Source: Thermoplasmatota archaeon
GTDB taxonomy: Archaea; Thermoplasmatota; Thermoplasmata; RBG-16-68-12; JAGMCJ01
Assembly: GCA_022848865.1 (NCBI GenBank)
Contig: JAJISE010000005.1
Location: 2,930-66,929 of the forward strand
Direction: 5' to 3'
Length of the DNA: 64,000 nt
How positions within the stretch are numbered: the first letter of the stretch is position 1; each line of letters starts with the position of its first letter. Positions 6,182-52,720 of this stretch are shown here, one piece after another. Made by a program: the position numbers and the translations under genes. Below the pieces are notes generated by a model. The model did not search any database, was not told where the DNA came from, and worked only from the letters and a program-made list of their open reading frames with translations.

Positions 6182-6799
6182 ATGTCCTCGTTCGTAGCAG
6201 AGATTGTGGGTTTCGTGAGGGACCTCGTTCTTGTTCTGGGTTACCCGGGAATCTTCTTGGCGATGTTCGTGGAGGGGATAATCACGCCCATTCCCAGCGA
6301 GGCGATCCTTCCATTGGCAGGCTCCTTGGCCTATGAGGGCAGGTTCGAGGTCTGGGCGGTCATAGTCGTTGCGACTGTCGGTGCAACGTTGGGCTCCACG
6401 GTCGCGTACTTCATCGGAGACTACTTCGGCCGGGGCTTCGTGCACAGGTTCGGGAAGTACTTCAGGCTGACCGAAGAGCACCTCGAGCGGACCGAGCGGT
6501 GGTTCGAGAAGTACGGCAGGGCCTCCATCTTCATCGGGCACTGCCTACCGGGGACGAGGTCGTTCATCTCCTTCCCCGCCGGAATCGCGAAGATGGACCT
6601 GCGCAACTTCGTGATCTCGACGTTCTTTGGAGCCCTTGTATGGAACACCGTGCTGACGCTCACGGGCTACTTCCTCAGCAGCCAGCTGGACACCCTGGAA
6701 GGGTTCTTCGAGTATCTGGACATCATCGCGCTGATTGCAGTTCTGTCGGTCATAATCGTCTACTTCATCTGGACAAGGAAGCGCCCCGCTCAGGTGTAG
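6182..6799 (+). CDS. DedA/VTT-family membrane protein
   Basis: GYPGIFLAMFVEGIITPIPSE signature. Multiple TM helices. Confidence 0.8.
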   Translation: MSSFVAEIVGFVRDLVLVLGYPGIFLAMFVEGIITPIPSEAILPLAGSLAYEGRFEVWAVIVVATVGATLGSTVAYFIGDYFGRGFVHRFGKYFRLTEEHLERTERWFEKYGRASIFIGHCLPGTRSFISFPAGIAKMDLRNFVISTFFGALVWNTVLTLTGYFLSSQLDTLEGFFEYLDIIALIAVLSVIIVYFIWTRKRPAQV

Positions 6800-8556
6800 T
6801 AGTACTCGCCCGCCGCCTTCTGCTCGCGGTCCAGGCGGGAGTCGGGGTTATTGATCCGGGGTCTGTTCGTCTCGTTGTCCCGCCTGAACGTGATCGAGAC
6901 CTCCTTGAGGAACTTGTTCATGCCCTCGCGCATCCCGAACGGCCCCTCGCCGATCCCCTTCTTGGAGGGTTCGCCGTGGAAGACCATGAGCGCGTCGGAG
7001 ACGAGGTCGATGAAGTAGATGTCGTGGTCCACGATCATCCCGCTCATTCCCTTGCTCTCCATCGCCCTCCTTATGGCCCTGGCGGCCTCCATCCTCTGGT
7101 TCGAGTCGAGGTATGCAGATGGCTCGTCGATGAGGTAGATGTCCGCTTCCCTTGCGAGGCACAGGCCGATAGCGACGCCCTGGAGTTCCCCTCCAGAGAG
7201 CGTCGGGATAGACCGTTCCATGAGCGATTCCAGATTCAGCGGCCCTGCGATTTCGGTCGTGAAGTGGCTCGTCTCGAACTCCTCTCCCGCCTCATTGAGG
7301 AAGGCCTCGCGGACGGTGCCCTTGAACTTCGGCTCGATGTACTGGGGCTTATAACTCACCTTGAGGTCTGCCTCGACGTTGCCCTTCGTGGGGTTCAGAA
7401 CTCCCGCCAGCATCTTCACGAACGTGGTCTTGCCCGTGGCGTTTGGTCCGACGACCCCGACAACCTCTCCCTGTCGGATGACGCCCTCGCTCGTCTTGAG
7501 CGTGAACCCCTTGAACCTCTTGTAGAGCGGCTCGAACTGAACCAGCGGCTGCCCGCCCCACTCCTTCCTGGGTGCGTGGGCCTCGAACCTGATCTCCCTC
7601 TCCCGGAACCTTATGTTCTCCTCCTTCAGGAAGCCTTGGAGATAGGTGTTGATGGCGGCGCGAACGCCCCGCGGCTGCGCGACGACGCCGAATGCCCCCT
7701 TCTCGCCGAACATCAGGTGGACACTGTCGGCAAGGAAGTCCAGTACGGCGAGGTCGTGCTCTATGACGACGACCTGCTTCGTCTGCGACAGGGCCTGAAT
7801 GGACTCCGCGACCTTAAGTCTCTGATGTATGTCCAAGTAGGAGGACGGCTCGTCGAAGAAGTAGATGTCGGCGTCCTTGAGGAAGGTTGCCGCTATGGCC
7901 ACGCGCTGAAGCTCCCCGCCGGAGAGTTTGGACAGATCGCGGTCGATGGTGTGGCTGATGCCGAACTCGCTCGAGACGTCCTCGAGGTTTCCCGACTCGT
8001 CCACCCTCTCGAGAAGCTCCCCTGCCTTTCCCTTGTGAACGCCAGTAAGCTTGTCCACGTACTGCGGCTTGAAGGATGTGCGGAGGTCCTCCCCGGCGAT
8101 CCTGCTCAGGTAGTTGTGCATCTCCGTTCCCGCGTACGTCTCCAGAGCCAGTTCCCACGAGGGCTTACGGCGCAGATTGCCCATGTTCGGGACGGTCTCG
8201 CCGGAGAGGATGCTAATGACTGTGGTCTTTCCAATCCCGTTGGGCCCGAGCATTCCCATCACCTCCCCCTGATGCGGCGTGGGGAGCCTGTAGAGCCTGA
8301 ACCCGTTGACGCCATACTGGTGGACGATCTCCTTCGAGAGCTCCTTCGGAAGACCGACGATGCGGATCGCGTCGAACGGGCATTTGTGAATGCAAATGCC
8401 GCAGCCGACGCAGAGCTCCTCCGATATGACCGGCCTGCCCTCCTCGCCCATCACTATCGTCTCGGTGCCCGTTCTCACGGGAGGACAGTAGCTCATGCAC
8501 TCCACGTTGCACCGCCTGGGCTGGCACCTGTCGCGAAGAAGGACCGCGATTCGCAT
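6790..8556 (-). CDS. abce1: ABCE1 / RNase L inhibitor (ribosome recycling ATPase)
   Basis: N-terminal FeS domain (CxxCxxC...C), twin ABC cassettes with Walker A and signature motifs, 588 aa. Confidence 0.9.
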   Translation of the reverse strand: MRIAVLLRDRCQPRRCNVECMSYCPPVRTGTETIVMGEEGRPVISEELCVGCGICIHKCPFDAIRIVGLPKELSKEIVHQYGVNGFRLYRLPTPHQGEVMGMLGPNGIGKTTVISILSGETVPNMGNLRRKPSWELALETYAGTEMHNYLSRIAGEDLRTSFKPQYVDKLTGVHKGKAGELLERVDESGNLEDVSSEFGISHTIDRDLSKLSGGELQRVAIAATFLKDADIYFFDEPSSYLDIHQRLKVAESIQALSQTKQVVVIEHDLAVLDFLADSVHLMFGEKGAFGVVAQPRGVRAAINTYLQGFLKEENIRFREREIRFEAHAPRKEWGGQPLVQFEPLYKRFKGFTLKTSEGVIRQGEVVGVVGPNATGKTTFVKMLAGVLNPTKGNVEADLKVSYKPQYIEPKFKGTVREAFLNEAGEEFETSHFTTEIAGPLNLESLMERSIPTLSGGELQGVAIGLCLAREADIYLIDEPSAYLDSNQRMEAARAIRRAMESKGMSGMIVDHDIYFIDLVSDALMVFHGEPSKKGIGEGPFGMREGMNKFLKEVSITFRRDNETNRPRINNPDSRLDREQKAAGEYYYT

Positions 8557-8640
8557 CCTCTGATTGGAAGGTTCGGCCGATATTTAAGAGCGATGTAGGA
8601 GCGATGCAACAGGTTTTAATGTTCGACCACCTTGCGGTTC

Positions 8641-9000
8641 ATGATGATACCTGGAGGAAGGATGAGTCCCAAGCAGATGCAGGCAGCCATGAAGCGGTTG
8701 GGAATCAAGACGGAAGAGCTGGAGAACGTGGAGGAGGTCGTCATCAGGACAGCGGACAAGGAATACATCATCCCGAGGGCCGCCGTCACGAAGATGGAGG
8801 TCCAGGGCCAGACCACATATCAGATAGTGGGGGAAGCGGAGGAGTTCGCCAAGTCAGAAGAGGGCCCGCGGGTCCCTGAGGAGGATGTCAGACTCGTTGC
8901 AGAGAAGGCGAACGTCAGTGAAGAGAGGGCCCGCCAGGCCCTGATTGACTGCGACGGCGAGCTCGCGGAGGCCATCGTGAAGCTGATGGGCGAGGGATAG
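8641..9000 (+). CDS. nac: Nascent polypeptide-associated complex alpha subunit (NAC with UBA domain)
   Basis: MMIPGG...QMQAAMKRLGI N-terminus and C-terminal UBA-like domain. The alternative start is the ATG at 8662, which is preceded by a GGAGG. Confidence 0.8.
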   Translation: MMIPGGRMSPKQMQAAMKRLGIKTEELENVEEVVIRTADKEYIIPRAAVTKMEVQGQTTYQIVGEAEEFAKSEEGPRVPEEDVRLVAEKANVSEERARQALIDCDGELAEAIVKLMGEG

Positions 9001-9017
9001 CTCCGGGGAGGAGTCCT

Positions 9018-9404
9018 ATGAAGATTGCTCATACATCCATCCGCGCGAAGAACATGAACGAGGCCATTGCGTTCTACGAGGGCATCGGGCTGAAGTTGGT
9101 GAGCCGGAGGGAGATCCCGCAGAACGAGGCGGAGATAGCATTCTTGGAGGCGCCGGGCGGCGGGGCGAAGCTGGAGCTCACGCACTACAACGGGCAGGAG
9201 AGCTACTCTCAGGCGGAGTACGAGGACAGGGTCTTCGACCACATCGCCCTGGAGACTGACGATATGGACGGCGTCCTTCAGAAGGTCAAGGAATCCGGCG
9301 GGAACGTGACGGACGAGCCCTTTCATCTCAATCCTGGCGGGCCGAGGATCGCCTTCTTCGAGGATCCAAACGAGGTCCTCATAGAGCTCATCGAGAGGTC
9401 ATGA
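9018..9404 (+). CDS. Glyoxalase/VOC-family protein
   Basis: VOC fold motifs (HIALETDDMDG..., EDPNEVLIEL). Confidence 0.75.
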   Translation: MKIAHTSIRAKNMNEAIAFYEGIGLKLVSRREIPQNEAEIAFLEAPGGGAKLELTHYNGQESYSQAEYEDRVFDHIALETDDMDGVLQKVKESGGNVTDEPFHLNPGGPRIAFFEDPNEVLIELIERS

Positions 9405-9446
9405 CGGAACCGCTCGCTTGACCGTTCCTGCGCTCCGCTGTCAAAG

Positions 9447-9454
9447 TATATATA
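9447..9454 (+). promoter_or_regulatory. TATA box (tatatata) about 27 nt upstream of the inferred SRP RNA 5' end
   Basis: AT-rich octamer in an otherwise GC-rich region. The spacing to the start of the terminal helix fits an archaeal BRE/TATA promoter. Confidence 0.5.
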
Positions 9455-9476
9455 CCTACGAGAACTTTGAACGCTT

Positions 9477-9784
9477 GCTAGGCTTGACCGGAGGGCTCGG
9501 CGTCCTCTTGTACACCGAAACCGTCGTTAGCGGGGGTGACAGTCGAGGGCGGCGTCACCAGCTTGATGTTGACCCTCTGGCCAACTATGAGGTCCTGTCC
9601 TGTGGGGCAGGAGGCGGTGAGAAGTCGATCGGAGGATCGAAACTATCACCCTGATCGTGGATATCGGGTCAGGCACGGAAGTGAGCAGCCTTACCACGAA
9701 CTACCGGCGCTCGCGGGGTCGCGGGACCGAGGCGGCCTGAGGACAACCGGCATCGAGTCTGAGCGTCCACCTCGGCGGCCTAGC
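9477..9784 (+). ncRNA. ffs: Signal recognition particle RNA (7S / SRP RNA), about 300 nt
   Basis: Conserved domain-IV / helix-8 motif GGUCAGG-CACGGAAG-UGAGCAGCC at about 9663-9688. The 5' end (GCUAGGCU) and 3' end (GGCCUAGC) pair as a terminal helix. There is no credible ORF here and a TATA box lies upstream. Confidence 0.6.
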
Positions 9785-10439
9785 TCAGATCCGGCAGCTT
9801 CATCTGTCTTGTATCCACCCTGAGATGGTTTATATCGAACTTCTCTAGAACAAGGTCTCTGAGGACAAGTATGGCGGGCTCCTCGAAGGCCCCGCTGGAT
9901 GTGTACGCGGGGTCGTTTCCAGGTATCTCTATCCCGCTCCTCAGAAGGAGCTTCCTGGCCTCGGACCTCTCCTCCCCCTTGACGCTCATCGCGGTGACCT
10001 CGTCAAAGCCGCACTCCCTCAGCTCCTGGAGGAAGACCGGTCTCCGGAAGAGCTCCTCCAACACAGACACTGCCAGAGCTGGCTTCTCCTTGTCGGAGAT
10101 CTCTGCCAACTTGCACTTATCCCCAACCGTCTCATAGATGTTCCTCTCTCGGTTCGCGGACGTCGCGTAGACCTTCGAAGGCGGTATCTGCTTCTCCCTG
10201 ACGACGCCCATGTCCGCCATCGCCCGCAGATAGCCTGTAAGAAAGAGACGATGAATCGCATGCCCGTCCTTGTTGAGCCGCCTCGCCAGACCGCTTATCG
10301 ATCTCTCCTCCTCCTTGACATACGAGATGATCAGATTCTTCAAAGTTCTCTCGGGGACAAACAACTGCTCACCGACCGGGTAACATACTTGGTAACAAAT
10401 AAGTCTTTTCATCCCCACAATGCCCTCAGACCTGGTCAC
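9780..10439 (-). CDS. Hypothetical protein, possibly a winged-helix regulator. It has a GTG start with a TATA box about 26 nt upstream, so it is likely leaderless.
   Basis: 219-aa ORF. TTTATA at about 10461-10466 on the minus strand. The alternative start is Met10 (MKRLICY). Confidence 0.5.
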   Translation of the reverse strand: MTRSEGIVGMKRLICYQVCYPVGEQLFVPERTLKNLIISYVKEEERSISGLARRLNKDGHAIHRLFLTGYLRAMADMGVVREKQIPPSKVYATSANRERNIYETVGDKCKLAEISDKEKPALAVSVLEELFRRPVFLQELRECGFDEVTAMSVKGEERSEARKLLLRSGIEIPGNDPAYTSSGAFEEPAILVLRDLVLEKFDINHLRVDTRQMKLPDLS

Positions 10440-10625
10440 AAAGCCAGTTCAAAAACCTCTATAAATCCCGTTCGCTCTCTACCCGACGGGCCGGCGTCTA
10501 CTTGTTCGTTTCACACATTACGATAACTCCCCCTTTTATTTTTTGACTGGTTGAGTTGATATTACGCTTATTGATATTCAGAAGAGAACCTATATACCGA
10601 TTCAAATGGCTCTCAACAATCGCTG

Positions 10626-11336
10626 ATGCAGGAGAATGGAAGGTTCAAGAGCTATGTCCTTGGCTTTGATGACAAGCTGGACGGCGGAATCCCGGAAGGC
10701 CACATCGTTCTCGTTTGTGGAGAACCGGGCACGATGAAGTCCAGCTTGGCCTTCAGCATGCTGTACAACAACGCGCTGAAGGAGGACAGGGTCGCGGCCT
10801 ATCTCTCGCTCGAGCAGGGGAGGGACAGCCTGCTCAAGCAGATGAAGGGGATGGGGATGGACCCGCAGAACGTCGAGGACAAGCTCAGCATAGTCGACCT
10901 GAGCCTGATCAGGCGGAACCTGGAAACGCTCAAGGACCAGAGTTGGGTGGAAATCTTCAAGATGTACGCCTCCAATCTGAAGAAGAACACGGATTTCGAC
11001 CTCTTCTGCCTCGACTCGCTCTCGATCCTGGAGACGCTCGCCCGTTTCGAGTATCCCAGGGAGGAGCTCTTTCAGCTCTTCGAGTGGCTCAAGGACCTTG
11101 GTACGACGTGCCTGATCATCAGCGAGATGAACATCGGTGAGAAGCCGTTCGGCAGGTACGGGGAGGACTTCGTGGCAGACGGCATCATCCACGTGAAGAT
11201 GGAGAACGTGGACGAGGTCAACGTCCAGAGGCGCATAAGATGCGTGAAGATGAGGGGCACGAGTCACAGCCCGAACTACTACACGCTCCTTTTCGAAGAT
11301 GGCGTGTTCCAGGCGACGAGGGTCATCAGCGAATAG
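10626..11336 (+). CDS. KaiC-like / RecA-superfamily ATPase (single KaiC domain, FlaH/ArlH-like size) with a degenerate Walker A
   Basis: DGGIPEGHIVLVCGEPGTMKSSLAF. The P-loop reads GEPGTMKS, with Met in place of the conserved Gly. Walker B-like LFCLDSL. 236 aa. Confidence 0.75.
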   Translation: MQENGRFKSYVLGFDDKLDGGIPEGHIVLVCGEPGTMKSSLAFSMLYNNALKEDRVAAYLSLEQGRDSLLKQMKGMGMDPQNVEDKLSIVDLSLIRRNLETLKDQSWVEIFKMYASNLKKNTDFDLFCLDSLSILETLARFEYPREELFQLFEWLKDLGTTCLIISEMNIGEKPFGRYGEDFVADGIIHVKMENVDEVNVQRRIRCVKMRGTSHSPNYYTLLFEDGVFQATRVISE

Positions 11337-11470
11337 GCGGTCCATTTTCTTGGTGGCCAGCCAGCTTCGGAACCTTTTTATAACCTTTGCGTAATAGGTT
11401 CAACTAGCCACGGTGGTGTGGGCAGCACCATAATGAATGCCTAGGCTGATAAATGAGAGGAGGCTTCGAA

Positions 11471-14400
11471 ATGAAGTTAACGGAAGGGGAATCCTTCGCC
11501 AGGGTTTTGGCAATCGCGGTAGGACTTCTGATGGTTGTGCCGGCGACATACATCGCCGGATTTAGCACGCCTCTGGAGATGGTTACCGCGGAGACCACAT
11601 TTGTGTATTTCGGCAGCGAGAACGACCGCGACGCTCTGATGGAGTCGGGCGTTGAGATACTGGAGATCTACGACTCGTTTGCACTCGTGAGGACGACGAC
11701 CGCGCAGAACGACATGTTCCAGTCCCAAGGGATGATAGTGGACATGCCGTACGACCTGCACGCCATCCACGTGAACGGCATGATCATCGACACGCGCGTG
11801 GGGGAGTCGGAGATACCCGCCAACCTCAGGTTGGAGGCGTACAGGAGCGACGTGGACGGCCACTACCTCGTGCAGTTCCATGGACCTGTGAAGGAAGAGT
11901 GGAAGCAGGACATCGAGAGACTGGGAGGCAGGGTACTCAACTACATCCCGAATGACGCCTTCATCGTCCAGCTCGATGCGGAGCTCCTCGACGACGTGCG
12001 GTCCTTGACGGAGGTCCAGTGGCTGGGCGTGTTCCAGCCGGCGTACAAAGTCAGACCCGCCCTGTTCGAGATGAGCGGGAGGGTCTCCGTGAAGATAATC
12101 ACGTTCGCAGACGAGGGTCTTGGCCAGGTGGTAAGCTCGCTGCACAGGGACCAGATCAACTCGTACTTCGAGACCGATGACTTCGGCGTGGTCAAGGCCG
12201 AGGTCGACGTGACCGACATCCCGAGCTTCGCCAAGCTCAACTCGGTGCAATACATCGAGCCCATCTATGAGATGGAGCCGACGAACGCCAACATGCAGTG
12301 GATCATGCAGACCGACATACCAGACAACAGAAGGCTGTGGGACATGGGCCTCCACGGTGAGGGGCAGATCATAGCGGTCGCGGACACCGGGCTCGACTTC
12401 GACCACAGGTTCTTCCGCGAGGACGGTGGCACGGTCCAGACAGGTGACATCTACAACGTCACGGACCTCAACAGGAGGAAGGTCGTGAGATACCAGACCA
12501 TGAGTCACTGGATCGGCATCGACAGGATGACCGACCCGTGGGCCTGGAAGGACAGCGCGTACATGTGGGTAGCCGGGAACATCACGTCGGGCCACGGGAC
12601 CATGGTCTCGGGGACACTAACGGGGAACGATGACCCGCTTGGGGCAAGCCTGAATGACGGCATCGCCAAGGGCGCCAAGATATACTTCCAGGACATCGGG
12701 ACGCTCTACAAGAACCCGGAATGGAGCGACTGGTGGGACGACTCGCTGCGGTTCATTCCCGATGATTATCACGACCTGTTCTGGGACCCGTACAATGACA
12801 CTGCGAGGATCCACAGCAACAGCTGGGGCGCGAAGAACTCCGACTACGACCTCGAAGCCATGATGGTTGACAAGTTCATGTGGGAATACCCGGAGATGCT
12901 TGTCGTCTTCTCCACAGGTAACGATGGGCTCAACGGTCCGGGCAGCCCCGCGACAGCGAAGAACACCATTGCGGTGGGGTGGCATGGCAATTTCCCGAAC
13001 CAGGACAAGGTGGACTCCTCAAGTTCGGTCGGTCCAACAGACGATGGTAGGCGCACGCCCACGGTCATGGCTGTGGGGCAAGGCGTCTCCTCGCGGTCAA
13101 GCGGAAACAACTGGGACAACTCGAACATCGGGAACGAGCTCGGTTGGCAGGGAACGAGCTATTCCGGTCCCGTCGTCTCAGGTCTCGCCGCGATCACCCG
13201 CCAGTACTACACGGAAGGCTGGTACCCGACGGGCAACGCGGTCCCCGCGAACGGGTTCACACCCAGCGGGGCCCTTCTGAAGTCCACGATAGCCGTCGCC
13301 GGACAGCAGATGCAGGGGGCAAGGGCGGACAGGATGTTCGAGGGGACATGGCCCAACAGGGCACAGGGCTGGGGAAGAGTGGTCCTGGACAACGCACTCT
13401 ACTTCCCGGGTGATGCCAGCAGACTTCACATCGTCGACCACACTGAGGGCCTCGCGACAGGAGAGAGCGTGGAGTACACCTACTACGCCTCGAGCGGCGC
13501 AATCCCGTTCAAGGTCGCGATGGCGTACAGCGACTATCCCGGAGCGACGCCGACGACCAAGGCGCTCGTGAACAATCTGGATCTTCTTGTCACATCCCCT
13601 ACGGGGGAGACCTTCAAGGGGAACGTGTTCACCTCGGGAAACGTCTACGTCGATTACATGGAGTCCAGGCCCGACTTCGGGTCCTACGACATCGACAACC
13701 CGCTGGAGACTGTTCTCGACCTGTCCCCGAGCATCGGCTTCTGGAAGGTGAGGGTGACGGGGACGAACGTTCCCTCCGGGCCTCAGCCCTTCGCGCTGTC
13801 GATAATCGGTGCGACGGACCCGGGCTACGGACAGCTGTTCCTCGACAGGACTCTGTACGGAGACTCGGACACTATCACCATAACGGTGGAAGACGCGGAT
13901 GCGGTCGGCCCTCTGATCGTTCCGGTGTACAGCGACACGGAGACCGGCGGTGAGAATGTCACACTCCTCGAGATCGGAGCAGGTGTGTTCGAGGGGGCGA
14001 TCAATACCGCCTTCGGCACACCAACCGCCGACGGAGCCCTCCAGGTGAGCGAGGACGACACGGTCACGGTCGAGTACGCGGACACGACGGTCCCAATTAG
14101 GACCCTCCAGCAGACGGCGCTCATAGACGGCGCACCTCCGATGATAACGGGCGTGAAGGCGACGAGGATAACCAACGCGGCCGCCACGATAGTGTGGAAC
14201 ACGGACGAGTCGGCGACCTCGACGGTCTTCTACGACACCAGCCCTGTGTCTCTGACTAATACTGCGGTCAAGACGCCTGCTGGTCTCTTCGTCTCCCATT
14301 CCATTGATGTTATCGGCCTGCAGACAGGCTTGAGGTACTACTTCGACGTCGAGTCGACGGACAGATTCGGACACACGACTCTGGATGATAACCAGGGACA

Positions 14401-16612
14401 GCACTACAGCTTCGTTACGACCGAGAAGGCGGAGCTTCTCCTCGTCATCGGCGACGACACGTTCCCGCCGGAGAGTGTCGATAGGTACAAGAACGCGTTC
14501 GAGAGCTTCGGGTGGTCCTACAACGAGTGGTATGTGGACAGAAGCGGCGTTCCGACGCTAATGCTGCTCCAGGGATACAAGGTCGTGCTCTGGCAGACCG
14601 GCCTGGAGGAGTATCCACCGTTCGAGCCTGAGGAAAGGGTCCTGATAACGAACTACATAGACGAGGGAGGACGGTTCTTCGTCTCCTCGCACGACGTCGC
14701 ATGGGCGCTTGCCAAGGACTCCGGTTCCGAATACGCGTCAGTAGAGTCCGGACAGTGGGTCAATTCCACACTGAAGGCGGACTGGGACATAGACCCCAGC
14801 CTCTGGACGGCCAACGAGGGGTCCATCGGAGACCCGATCAGCAATGAGTACGTTGGATTCAACCGGGTAAATTACGAGCCCCACAGGTCAGGTGGTTCTG
14901 GGGATGAGGTTAAGGCTCAGAGCTACGGTGGATCCGCCTCGACCGTCTGGATGAACTACGGGATCGATGCTTCCCCGGGGGATATCGGGCTCAAGTGGGT
15001 CTCCTCGGCTGCGAACGGGACCGCGGGGCCTGGGAAGGTCTGGGGAGGTCAACCATCTAAGCTGGCCTTGTACTTCTTCGAGGTCTCCCGAATCAACTTC
15101 GCGGACGTGAACGACCTGGACAGAGGCTCGATAATCAACAAGACGGTCGTGTGGCTGATTGGCCACGACCATCCAGATGTCCAGGTGATCTCTCCCAACG
15201 GCGGAGAGGTCTTCGTCGGGAACACCGTACAGATCGACTGGAGCCGCCAGGTGTACTCGTCAGGCGTAAACAGCCAGGCGCTCTTCTACAGCCCGGACGA
15301 CGGTCAGTCATGGGTGAGGATAACGCCCGACCCGCTGCCGGGAGACACGACCTACAACTGGAACGTGATCGGCCTGCAGAACGGGATACACTACCGCGTG
15401 AAGGTCGTTGTCGAGGACGACGGCGTCCCCTACCCGATGCTCAACGGCACGGACATATCGGACGACACGTTCACGATCCTGAAGCCCGGGGGAGACAATG
15501 TTGGCCCCATAACCGTCCCGGGAAGCATAAACGCAGTCCCGAACCCGGGCGAGAGGTACACGAGCATCGCATTCACGGCGACCGTCGACGATACGAACTA
15601 CGGGAACTCGATGATACAGGCCGTGGAGTTCTACATGGACGCTCCTGGACCCGACGGCGGAGGAACGCCGATGAGCCCTGTGGACATCTTCGACACCGCC
15701 CTGGAGCAGGCCACTTGGACCGGCTCGGCGGACTGGCCGCCCGGAGTGCACTGCATCTTCATCCACGGGCAGGACGCCGCGAACAACTGGGGCGAGTGGG
15801 AGTCCAGGTGCTTCACCATGCTCGGCAAGGTAGTGCAGGCCGCATCCAACTTCATGGCGGGAATCACTGGATTCGCCTACGCGGATGTGACCCTCGCATG
15901 GACATTGTCACCTGACGACCCGCTTGACGTGACCAACTATGCCATCTACTACGGAACGAGCTATGACCCGACGGCTACAAGCTACTCGTTCCTCGCCAGC
16001 GTCCCGAACCAGACGGGAATGTACGTTCACGCAGGAGCTGGTTCGGCCATCAGCAATTACTACTACGCGATATACTCCAACAGCTCGGGCGGCGATTCCA
16101 CCATGGCCTCGCAGCAGGCGGCGAAGTACTGGATACTTCTTATTGGGGGCGTGAACTTCATCTCGGTGCCGATCACGCCATCCGACCCGTTCCCGGCAAC
16201 GGTGTTCAAGATGATGGACACCGACTTCAGGGTCTGGACCTACGACCCGCTGGCGGGCGGTTGGGACAGTTTCAATTCGGTCAAGCCCTACGGCGGAGGA
16301 TTGTCCACGATTATGCCTGGCAAGGGCTACTGGTTGGACGTTCCCGCAGCGGACGATCTCCACGTCGCTGGATACGTGCAGACCCAGGTCTCGATCGAGC
16401 TGATCTCGCCCTGGACGCTTGTCGGATACCCATCGCTCACGGGCTCGATGACGGTCGGTGACCTGAAGGCGACGACCGGGGCGACGAAGGTCGAGGGATA
16501 CTCGGCGGCAGCGCCCTACCACCTGCAGGAGCTTGCGGACGTGTACGTCCTTGCACCCGGAGAGGCCTACTGGGTCGGCGGCGCCGACTACATCTGGCTG
16601 GTCTACATCTGA
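11471..16612 (+). CDS. Giant secreted subtilisin-like serine protease (peptidase S8), 1713 aa. Domain order: N-terminal hydrophobic signal or anchor, propeptide-like region, S8 catalytic domain, beta-sandwich, Fn3-like domain, an insert of about 520 aa, and a conserved C-terminal module.
   Basis: Catalytic Asp in DTGLDFDH, His in HGTMVSGT, Asn in NDGLNGPGSPATAKN, Ser in GTSYSGPVVSG. GGAGG lies 9 nt before the ATG at 11471 (the track ORF starts at 11453). TTTTTATAA promoter at about 11379. Confidence 0.85.
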   Translation: MKLTEGESFARVLAIAVGLLMVVPATYIAGFSTPLEMVTAETTFVYFGSENDRDALMESGVEILEIYDSFALVRTTTAQNDMFQSQGMIVDMPYDLHAIHVNGMIIDTRVGESEIPANLRLEAYRSDVDGHYLVQFHGPVKEEWKQDIERLGGRVLNYIPNDAFIVQLDAELLDDVRSLTEVQWLGVFQPAYKVRPALFEMSGRVSVKIITFADEGLGQVVSSLHRDQINSYFETDDFGVVKAEVDVTDIPSFAKLNSVQYIEPIYEMEPTNANMQWIMQTDIPDNRRLWDMGLHGEGQIIAVADTGLDFDHRFFREDGGTVQTGDIYNVTDLNRRKVVRYQTMSHWIGIDRMTDPWAWKDSAYMWVAGNITSGHGTMVSGTLTGNDDPLGASLNDGIAKGAKIYFQDIGTLYKNPEWSDWWDDSLRFIPDDYHDLFWDPYNDTARIHSNSWGAKNSDYDLEAMMVDKFMWEYPEMLVVFSTGNDGLNGPGSPATAKNTIAVGWHGNFPNQDKVDSSSSVGPTDDGRRTPTVMAVGQGVSSRSSGNNWDNSNIGNELGWQGTSYSGPVVSGLAAITRQYYTEGWYPTGNAVPANGFTPSGALLKSTIAVAGQQMQGARADRMFEGTWPNRAQGWGRVVLDNALYFPGDASRLHIVDHTEGLATGESVEYTYYASSGAIPFKVAMAYSDYPGATPTTKALVNNLDLLVTSPTGETFKGNVFTSGNVYVDYMESRPDFGSYDIDNPLETVLDLSPSIGFWKVRVTGTNVPSGPQPFALSIIGATDPGYGQLFLDRTLYGDSDTITITVEDADAVGPLIVPVYSDTETGGENVTLLEIGAGVFEGAINTAFGTPTADGALQVSEDDTVTVEYADTTVPIRTLQQTALIDGAPPMITGVKATRITNAAATIVWNTDESATSTVFYDTSPVSLTNTAVKTPAGLFVSHSIDVIGLQTGLRYYFDVESTDRFGHTTLDDNQGQHYSFVTTEKAELLLVIGDDTFPPESVDRYKNAFESFGWSYNEWYVDRSGVPTLMLLQGYKVVLWQTGLEEYPPFEPEERVLITNYIDEGGRFFVSSHDVAWALAKDSGSEYASVESGQWVNSTLKADWDIDPSLWTANEGSIGDPISNEYVGFNRVNYEPHRSGGSGDEVKAQSYGGSASTVWMNYGIDASPGDIGLKWVSSAANGTAGPGKVWGGQPSKLALYFFEVSRINFADVNDLDRGSIINKTVVWLIGHDHPDVQVISPNGGEVFVGNTVQIDWSRQVYSSGVNSQALFYSPDDGQSWVRITPDPLPGDTTYNWNVIGLQNGIHYRVKVVVEDDGVPYPMLNGTDISDDTFTILKPGGDNVGPITVPGSINAVPNPGERYTSIAFTATVDDTNYGNSMIQAVEFYMDAPGPDGGGTPMSPVDIFDTALEQATWTGSADWPPGVHCIFIHGQDAANNWGEWESRCFTMLGKVVQAASNFMAGITGFAYADVTLAWTLSPDDPLDVTNYAIYYGTSYDPTATSYSFLASVPNQTGMYVHAGAGSAISNYYYAIYSNSSGGDSTMASQQAAKYWILLIGGVNFISVPITPSDPFPATVFKMMDTDFRVWTYDPLAGGWDSFNSVKPYGGGLSTIMPGKGYWLDVPAADDLHVAGYVQTQVSIELISPWTLVGYPSLTGSMTVGDLKATTGATKVEGYSAAAPYHLQELADVYVLAPGEAYWVGGADYIWLVYI

Positions 16613-52599: not shown

Positions 52600-52673
52600 G
52601 CCCGAGTGGGGTAGCTTGGACATCCTAGAAGCCTGCGGAGCTTCGGACCCGGATTCAAATTCCGGCTCGGGCA
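52600..52673 (+). tRNA. tRNA-Arg (anticodon GCG)
   Basis: Acceptor stem GCCCGAG/CTCGGGC (7 bp). U8. D-arm. Anticodon stem GAAGC/GCTTC with loop CUGCGGA. T-arm CCGGA-TTCAAAT-TCCGG. Discriminator A. No encoded CCA. TTAAAGG about 25 nt upstream. Confidence 0.8.
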
Positions 52674-52720
52674 CTACATCTTTGCAGGGCTAACAAGAAT
52701 TCATCTATCTGAGTGCATTA

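Follow-up and report, generated by a model that had tools for sequence, protein, structure and literature searches.

A canonical archaeal SRP RNA gene in an intergenic gap of an uncultured Thermoplasmata archaeon

What occupies a gap between two protein genes in which only short open reading frames (ORFs) can be read? This question is raised by a 64,000-nucleotide (64 kb) stretch of contig JAJISE010000005.1 from a Thermoplasmatota archaeon (assembly GCA_022848865.1), hereafter the window, in which 375 nt (9405-9779) separate the stop of a glyoxalase gene at 9404 from the stop of a convergent gene at 9780. An earlier note on this DNA had put the gap at 360 nt, described it as GC-rich and covered by short overlapping ORFs alone, and proposed that it contains an unannotated signal recognition particle (SRP) RNA gene. 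The length needs correcting, and the GC-richness is marginal (61.3% in the gap and 63.2% in the RNA vs. 59.7% in the whole window); the description of the ORFs holds, there being just three over the gap, all short and overlapping. The central proposal stands: the gap almost certainly holds a complete canonical archaeal SRP RNA gene of an uncultured Thermoplasmata archaeon.

Rfam match and sequence elements

The whole window was scanned with Rfam 15 using cmscan at gathering thresholds, and the best clan member alone was kept. The sole Rfam hit in the window is to RF01857 (Archaea_SRP), at 9476..9785 on the plus strand, with 197.9 bits (about twice the gathering score of 96.5) and E = 4.1e-47. 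This match, which bears out the proposed identity, runs end to end over model positions 1-317 of 317, and we use its boundaries as those of the SRP (7S) RNA gene. Within clan CL00003, the archaeal model is the best member for this sequence. When the Rfam structure is projected on the sequence, 106 of the 126 model pairs are canonical, and its energy of -140 kcal/mol is less than 4 kcal/mol from the unconstrained minimum free energy of -143.8. The fold has a z-score of -2.77 relative to shuffled sequences.

Direct reading of 9200-10000 recovered all of the elements that the earlier note had named. The domain IV sequence gggtcaggcacggaagtgagcagcc occupies 9666-9690 (+). When written in degenerate form, as CAGGNNCGGAAGNNAGCAGC, and with up to one mismatch allowed, this motif occurs once in the 64 kb window, compared to 0.01 occurrences expected from dinucleotide shuffles. 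The terminal helix is formed by GCUAGGCU at 9477-9484 (+) and GGCCUAGC at 9777-9784 with seven Watson-Crick pairs and one G-U pair, and corresponds to helix 1 of the Rfam model. The TATA box at 9447-9454 had been placed 27 nt upstream of the 5' end, in agreement with our measurement of 26.5 nt from its centre to G9477.

The RNA is an ordinary orthologue of one that is universal and well described, and we regard it as already known since the standard Rfam model finds it at once. Its importance is limited to annotation completeness: a housekeeping RNA gene explains the 375-nt "empty" gap, and no gene calls should be made for the three short ORFs that lie over it.

Comparative support for the structure

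Relatives were retrieved from GTDB species genomes with the 21-mer CAGGCACGGAAGTGAGCAGCC, which gave at least 120 loci, mostly in metagenome-assembled genomes (MAGs) of Thermoplasmata/Thermoplasmatota, together with some Halobacteria and two Heimdallarchaeia. The closest SRP RNAs among the blastn matches listed are 99.0% identical to that of the window (L117, L094), followed by 97.1, 94.5, 92.6 and 91.3%, after which identity falls to about 76-71%. All 20 relatives tested with cmscan match RF01857 over its full length at 115-198 bits, with boundaries that agree with those derived from blastn.

We aligned the window RNA and 44 full-length Thermoplasmata homologues (45 sequences, 42 distinct) using MAFFT with no structure fitting, and scored covariation for the Rfam-derived structure. 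Two controls were used, one in which pairing partners were slid by 1-3 columns and one based on 500 column shuffles. Standard pairs were formed in 81.5% of cells, vs. 39-49% with slid partners. Changes on both sides were found for 48 of the 126 predicted pairs (18-26 with slid partners) and in 320 cells (38-83 with slid partners), and the covariation score was 0.247, vs. at most 0.09. For four of five measures none of the 500 column shuffles matched the observed values; the fifth, the count of further standard pair types, was reached by 4 of 500. The earlier note had asked for covariation in helices 5, 6 and 8. Helices 5 and 6 carry many compensatory changes, and the base of helix 8 varies yet stays paired, its basal pairs running U-G / C-G / U-A with no both-side change relative to the commonest pair.

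Two further observations concern the retrieved loci themselves. An identical 21-nt apex of helix 8, CAGGCACGGAAGTGAGCAGCC with an A-U closing pair, is common to Thermoplasmata, several haloarchaeal genera and the two Heimdallarchaeia; one of the latter, L001 (Candidatus Heimdallarchaeum, as is L087), scores 114.8 bits on RF01857. The 21-mer is also present on two contigs in each of two MAGs, DASWGO01 (L011 and L081) and CAYPUK01 (L050 and L106). One DASWGO01 contig ends in the SRP RNA with NAC and ABCE1 genes on one side, and the other has genes for a 194-aa protein and a KaiC-like ATPase. This pair looks like the result of an assembly break, within the SRP RNA gene or beside it, and not like a true duplication.

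Secondary structure

The features of archaeal SRP RNA given by Zwieb and Bhuiyan (PMC2905702) are helix 1, the small-domain helices, the UGUNR motif, the 5e motif, a GNAR loop and a GGAA loop. All of these apart from a strict UGUNR motif are present in the window RNA, in which all features described here lie on the plus strand. The small (Alu) domain at 9485..9539 consists of helices 2-4. Helix 2 (9485-9489 / 9535-9539) has two covarying pairs (A-U/G-C and C-G/G-C). Two covarying pairs are also found both in helix 3 (9490-9496 / 9502-9508 with a UCGGC loop; G-C/A-U) and in helix 4 (9513-9520 / 9529-9534; G-C/C-G). In the loops, G24/G25 and C47/C50 (RNA numbering) either never vary or are over 90% conserved, and no covariation is seen there. 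Their conservation is compatible with the known loop-loop tertiary contact between helices 3 and 4.

Helix 5 (9542-9613 / 9701-9776) is long, with 67 pairs of which 31 are changed on both sides among the relatives. It includes the 5e motif, formed by GUCC at 9597-9600 and GG[GUC]GC at 9716-9722 through the pairs G9597-C9722, U9598-G9721, C9599-G9717 and C9600-G9716, with G9718, U9719 and C9720 as the loop. This arrangement conforms to the definition of 5e as 11 nt with four pairs broken by a 3-nt loop (PMC2905702). The GUCC half is invariant in 45 of 45 sequences.

The large domain comprises helices 6 and 8. Helix 6 (9614-9652), the predicted SRP19-binding hairpin by homology with the family, has compensatory changes in 11 of its 17 pairs and carries a GGAG loop at 9631-9634; the relatives have GGAG, GGAA or GUAG, all consistent with GNAR. 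Helix 8, or domain IV (9655-9699), is the predicted site for the SRP54 M domain and has a GGAA loop at 9677-9680 and the conserved internal loops. Its sequence GGUCAGGCACGGAAGUGAGCAGCC is aligned to the RF01857 consensus with posterior probability "*" throughout. The closing stem, C-A-C / G-U-G, replaces a C-G pair of the Rfam consensus by A-U.

Promoter and 3' flank

The upstream region was analysed in the window and in the 43 relatives for which 45 nt upstream were available, each sequence being anchored at the 5' end of the RNA. The TATA box TATATATA (tatatata, 9447-9454, +) is preceded by an AA doublet at 9443-9444 (+) that resembles a transcription factor B recognition element (BRE). Both keep a constant distance from the RNA in the window as well as in 43/43 relatives with enough upstream sequence. 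Positions -28 to -22 are 86-100% A/T (TATATATA or TTAAATA) in surroundings of about 60-65% GC, and positions -33/-32 are 82-86% A. With the TATA box centred at about -26.5 relative to G9477, the arrangement has the standard geometry of archaeal promoters. By this geometry 9443..9454 would constitute an archaeal BRE/TATA promoter, and transcription probably starts at about G9477. A conserved proximal element, TTTGAAC at 9466..9472 (+) or TTGAGAAC in relatives, is occupied by T at -10/-9 in 82-95% of the sequences, while 86% have A at -5; its conservation suggests a proximal promoter or initiator-flanking element. On the 3' side of the RNA, relatives have a short C/T-rich tract and then the stop codon of the convergent gene.

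Evaluation of the assignment

Several observations weigh against a canonical, functional SRP RNA gene at this locus. The UGUNR motif is not strictly followed: its position is occupied by UGUAC (9509-9513), with C at the R position, and by UAUAC in some of the closest relatives, while most other sampled Thermoplasmata have UGUAG, UUUAG or UAUAG. However, C9513 forms the first pair of helix 4, and the deviation is structurally compensated because this pair flips between G-C (27 sequences) and C-G (12) among the relatives. Since several archaeal orders, Thermoplasmatales and Halobacteriales among them, lack UGUNR or have a deviant form of it (PMC2905702), the motif is not obligatory for membership. 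Helix 1 and the apex of helix 8 are invariant in our sample, i.e. they show conservation and no covariation. All eight pairs of helix 1 are standard in 42/42 distinct sequences and seven of them are invariant; in 38 of 42 the additional model pair 1/317 (U9476-U9785) does not form. The helix 8 apex does not vary, since this very 21-mer served to retrieve the relatives.

Formation of the 3' end is a further point on this side. The TAG stop of the convergent gene (9780-9782) overlaps the final 6 nt of the Rfam match and with them the 3' strand of helix 1. A bacterial promoter/terminator scan of 9300-10000 gave no promoter or terminator sites, hence no hairpin/oligo-T terminator 3' of the gene, and for an archaeon such a scan is uninformative beyond the lack of a hairpin with oligo-T. 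In addition, the SRP54/FtsY signature DT[AS]GR was found in none of the six frames of the 64 kb window, in which SRP19 was not searched for, and the sole match to G.GKTT in a six-frame scan of the window is within ABCE1. We assume that the SRP partner proteins are encoded elsewhere in the genome.

One alternative is that the RNA is a decayed or redundant copy, i.e. a pseudogene, and that the functional gene lies elsewhere. The 64 kb visible here leave room for a second copy beyond the window, and the terminal pair U9476-U9785 as well as 19 internal pairs are non-canonical. Decay is difficult to reconcile, however, with a score (198 bits) that equals or exceeds those of the orthologues from 20 relatives (115-198 bits), with the conserved promoter retained upstream, and with a syntenic position in which more than 40 other Thermoplasmata also have their SRP RNA. 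The compensatory substitutions moreover imply purifying selection on the structure. We consider a pseudogene highly improbable.

Even less credible is that the gap is coding sequence for one small protein or several, with the RNA-like features being incidental. The three ORFs, 9418..9654 (+, 78 aa), 9536..9823 (+, 95 aa) and 9527..9697 (-, 56 aa), do exist in the window and stay open in relatives with 94-99% identity, but both plus-strand ORFs gain in-frame stops in relatives that are 91-93% identical (L082, L038), all three change in length by +1/+2 in relatives with about 75% identity, and RNA pairing is held by compensatory changes while the reading frames break. The region 8000-11500 of the window is 100% identical to contig JAZHCG010748875.1 (assembly GCA_044240345.1), on which the gene caller of the public collection placed no protein gene in the gap (3388-3762 of L121). 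With their frames broken by stops and frameshifts in relatives, the three overlapping ORFs were rejected as coding candidates.

Comparison with other SRP RNAs

The window RNA shares helices 1, 2, 3, 4, 5, 6 and 8 with the archaeal family RF01857, represented for example by Archaeoglobus fulgidus and Methanocaldococcus jannaschii. It also shares the 5e motif, the GNAR loop of helix 6, the GGAA loop of helix 8 and the SRP54-binding internal loops. The differences from the consensus are UGUAC in place of UGUNR, with its C paired C-G where most sampled relatives have G-C, and the A-U pair in place of C-G in the closing stem of helix 8. These are trivial, lineage-level differences only.

The bacterial large SRP RNA (RF01854, Bacillus/Clostridium type) and the eukaryotic 7SL RNA (RF00017) belong to the same clan, CL00003, as the archaeal model, and share an Alu-like small domain, helix 5 and helix 8 (domain IV) with the window RNA. 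To our knowledge, the bacterial large SRP RNA is without helix 6. Helix 1 is also formed by Bacillus-type SRP RNAs, helix 7 has been reported in eukaryal SRP RNAs only, and binding of SRP72 at a conserved 5e adenosine is a eukaryotic feature (PMC2905702).

Cultured Thermoplasmatales (the Thermoplasma acidophilum group) belong to the same class as the window archaeon and have the same SRP RNA architecture with a GGAA loop on helix 8, and UGUNR is likewise not strict in them (PMC2905702). Their helix 6 loop is a deviant AAAG (PMC2905702), whereas the window RNA and its relatives have GNAR loops (GGAG, GGAA, GUAG). The AAAG deviation, which has been quoted as hinting that SRP19 might not be required, is not class-wide in Thermoplasmata, because the uncultured lineage studied here keeps GNAR on helix 6.

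Proposed function

The locus is almost certainly the single-copy SRP RNA gene, with a predicted 7S product of about 308-310 nt from 9476..9785 (+), probably driven by its own archaeal BRE/TATA promoter with a putative start at about G9477. In the fold, for which the covariance-model match and the covariation speak, helix 1 joins the ends of the RNA, helices 2-4 form the Alu-like small domain, and the long helix 5 with its 5e hinge motif leads to a large domain made of helix 6 (GGAG) and helix 8 (GGAA and conserved internal loops). Judging from homologous archaeal SRPs that have been studied, the M domain of SRP54 may be expected to bind helix 8, and SRP19 to clamp the tetraloops of helices 6 and 8. 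The particle would capture signal sequences at the ribosomal exit and dock on FtsY, and nascent membrane and secretory proteins would thereby be handed to the translocon, as in the rest of the family. These roles of helix 8, SRP19 and FtsY docking are as given for the family (PMC2905702).

Gene neighborhood

Upstream, the SRP RNA gene is flanked by a gene of the glyoxalase/VOC family (9018..9404, +; Pfam PF00903, E = 4e-17). Among the matches listed, a glyoxalase gene stands beside the SRP RNA in the closest clade only. The wider gene order in the window (6790..11336) is ABCE1(-) - NAC(+) - SRP RNA(+) - 194-aa protein(-) - KaiC-like ATPase(+), and the surrounding NAC, ABCE1 and KaiC-like ATPase genes are archaeal. 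This order, from ABCE1 to the KaiC-like gene, recurs in more than 40 Thermoplasmata loci (for example L038, L094, L091, L082, L057, L027, L093, L113 and L111) with proteins 45-64% identical to those of the window. Three of the five members of the block (ABCE1, NAC and SRP RNA) act on the ribosome. The block is not one operon because its genes are on alternating strands. A literature search for linkage between NAC and SRP RNA genes in archaea returned nothing relevant.

The convergent gene (9780..10364, -) encodes a winged-helix-like protein of 194 aa; its ORF extends back to 10439 (219 aa). The family of this protein comprises at least 642 clusters, in which nearly all listed members have 194 aa and nearly all named members are called hypothetical, the organisms given being Thermoplasmata or Methanobacteriota archaea. 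The protein has no Pfam or NCBIfam match, and a sequence profile search of the PDB gave nothing at E <= 1. Scans of 25 family members gave faint HTH_5, SoFic-like_C and HVO_A0114 winged-helix matches, all below threshold. No full-length structural match to the protein was found. The single-sequence AlphaFold2 (AF2) model, with a predicted local distance difference test (pLDDT) score of 41, was unusable.

Among the matches listed, the 194-aa gene is always convergent to the 3' end of the SRP RNA and lies 0-25 nt away. This arrangement might hint at functional coupling of a Thermoplasmata-only family to the SRP RNA, either as a lineage-specific SRP RNA-binding or 3'-end-defining factor or as a regulator of the block from ABCE1 to the KaiC-like gene, though we consider such coupling very unlikely. 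If the protein did regulate the block, the latter would represent a co-translational "ribosome exit" gene neighborhood. Slow rearrangement in the vicinity of essential genes could equally explain the conserved gene order.

The KaiC-like gene is closely followed downstream by an ORF of 1719 aa (11453..16612, +), which is called on the identical contig as a 1713-aa Peptidase_S8 (subtilase) protein and is presumably a protease that is secreted or located at the surface. A tRNA-Arg(GCG) gene at 52600..52674 (+) is the sole tRNA gene of the window.
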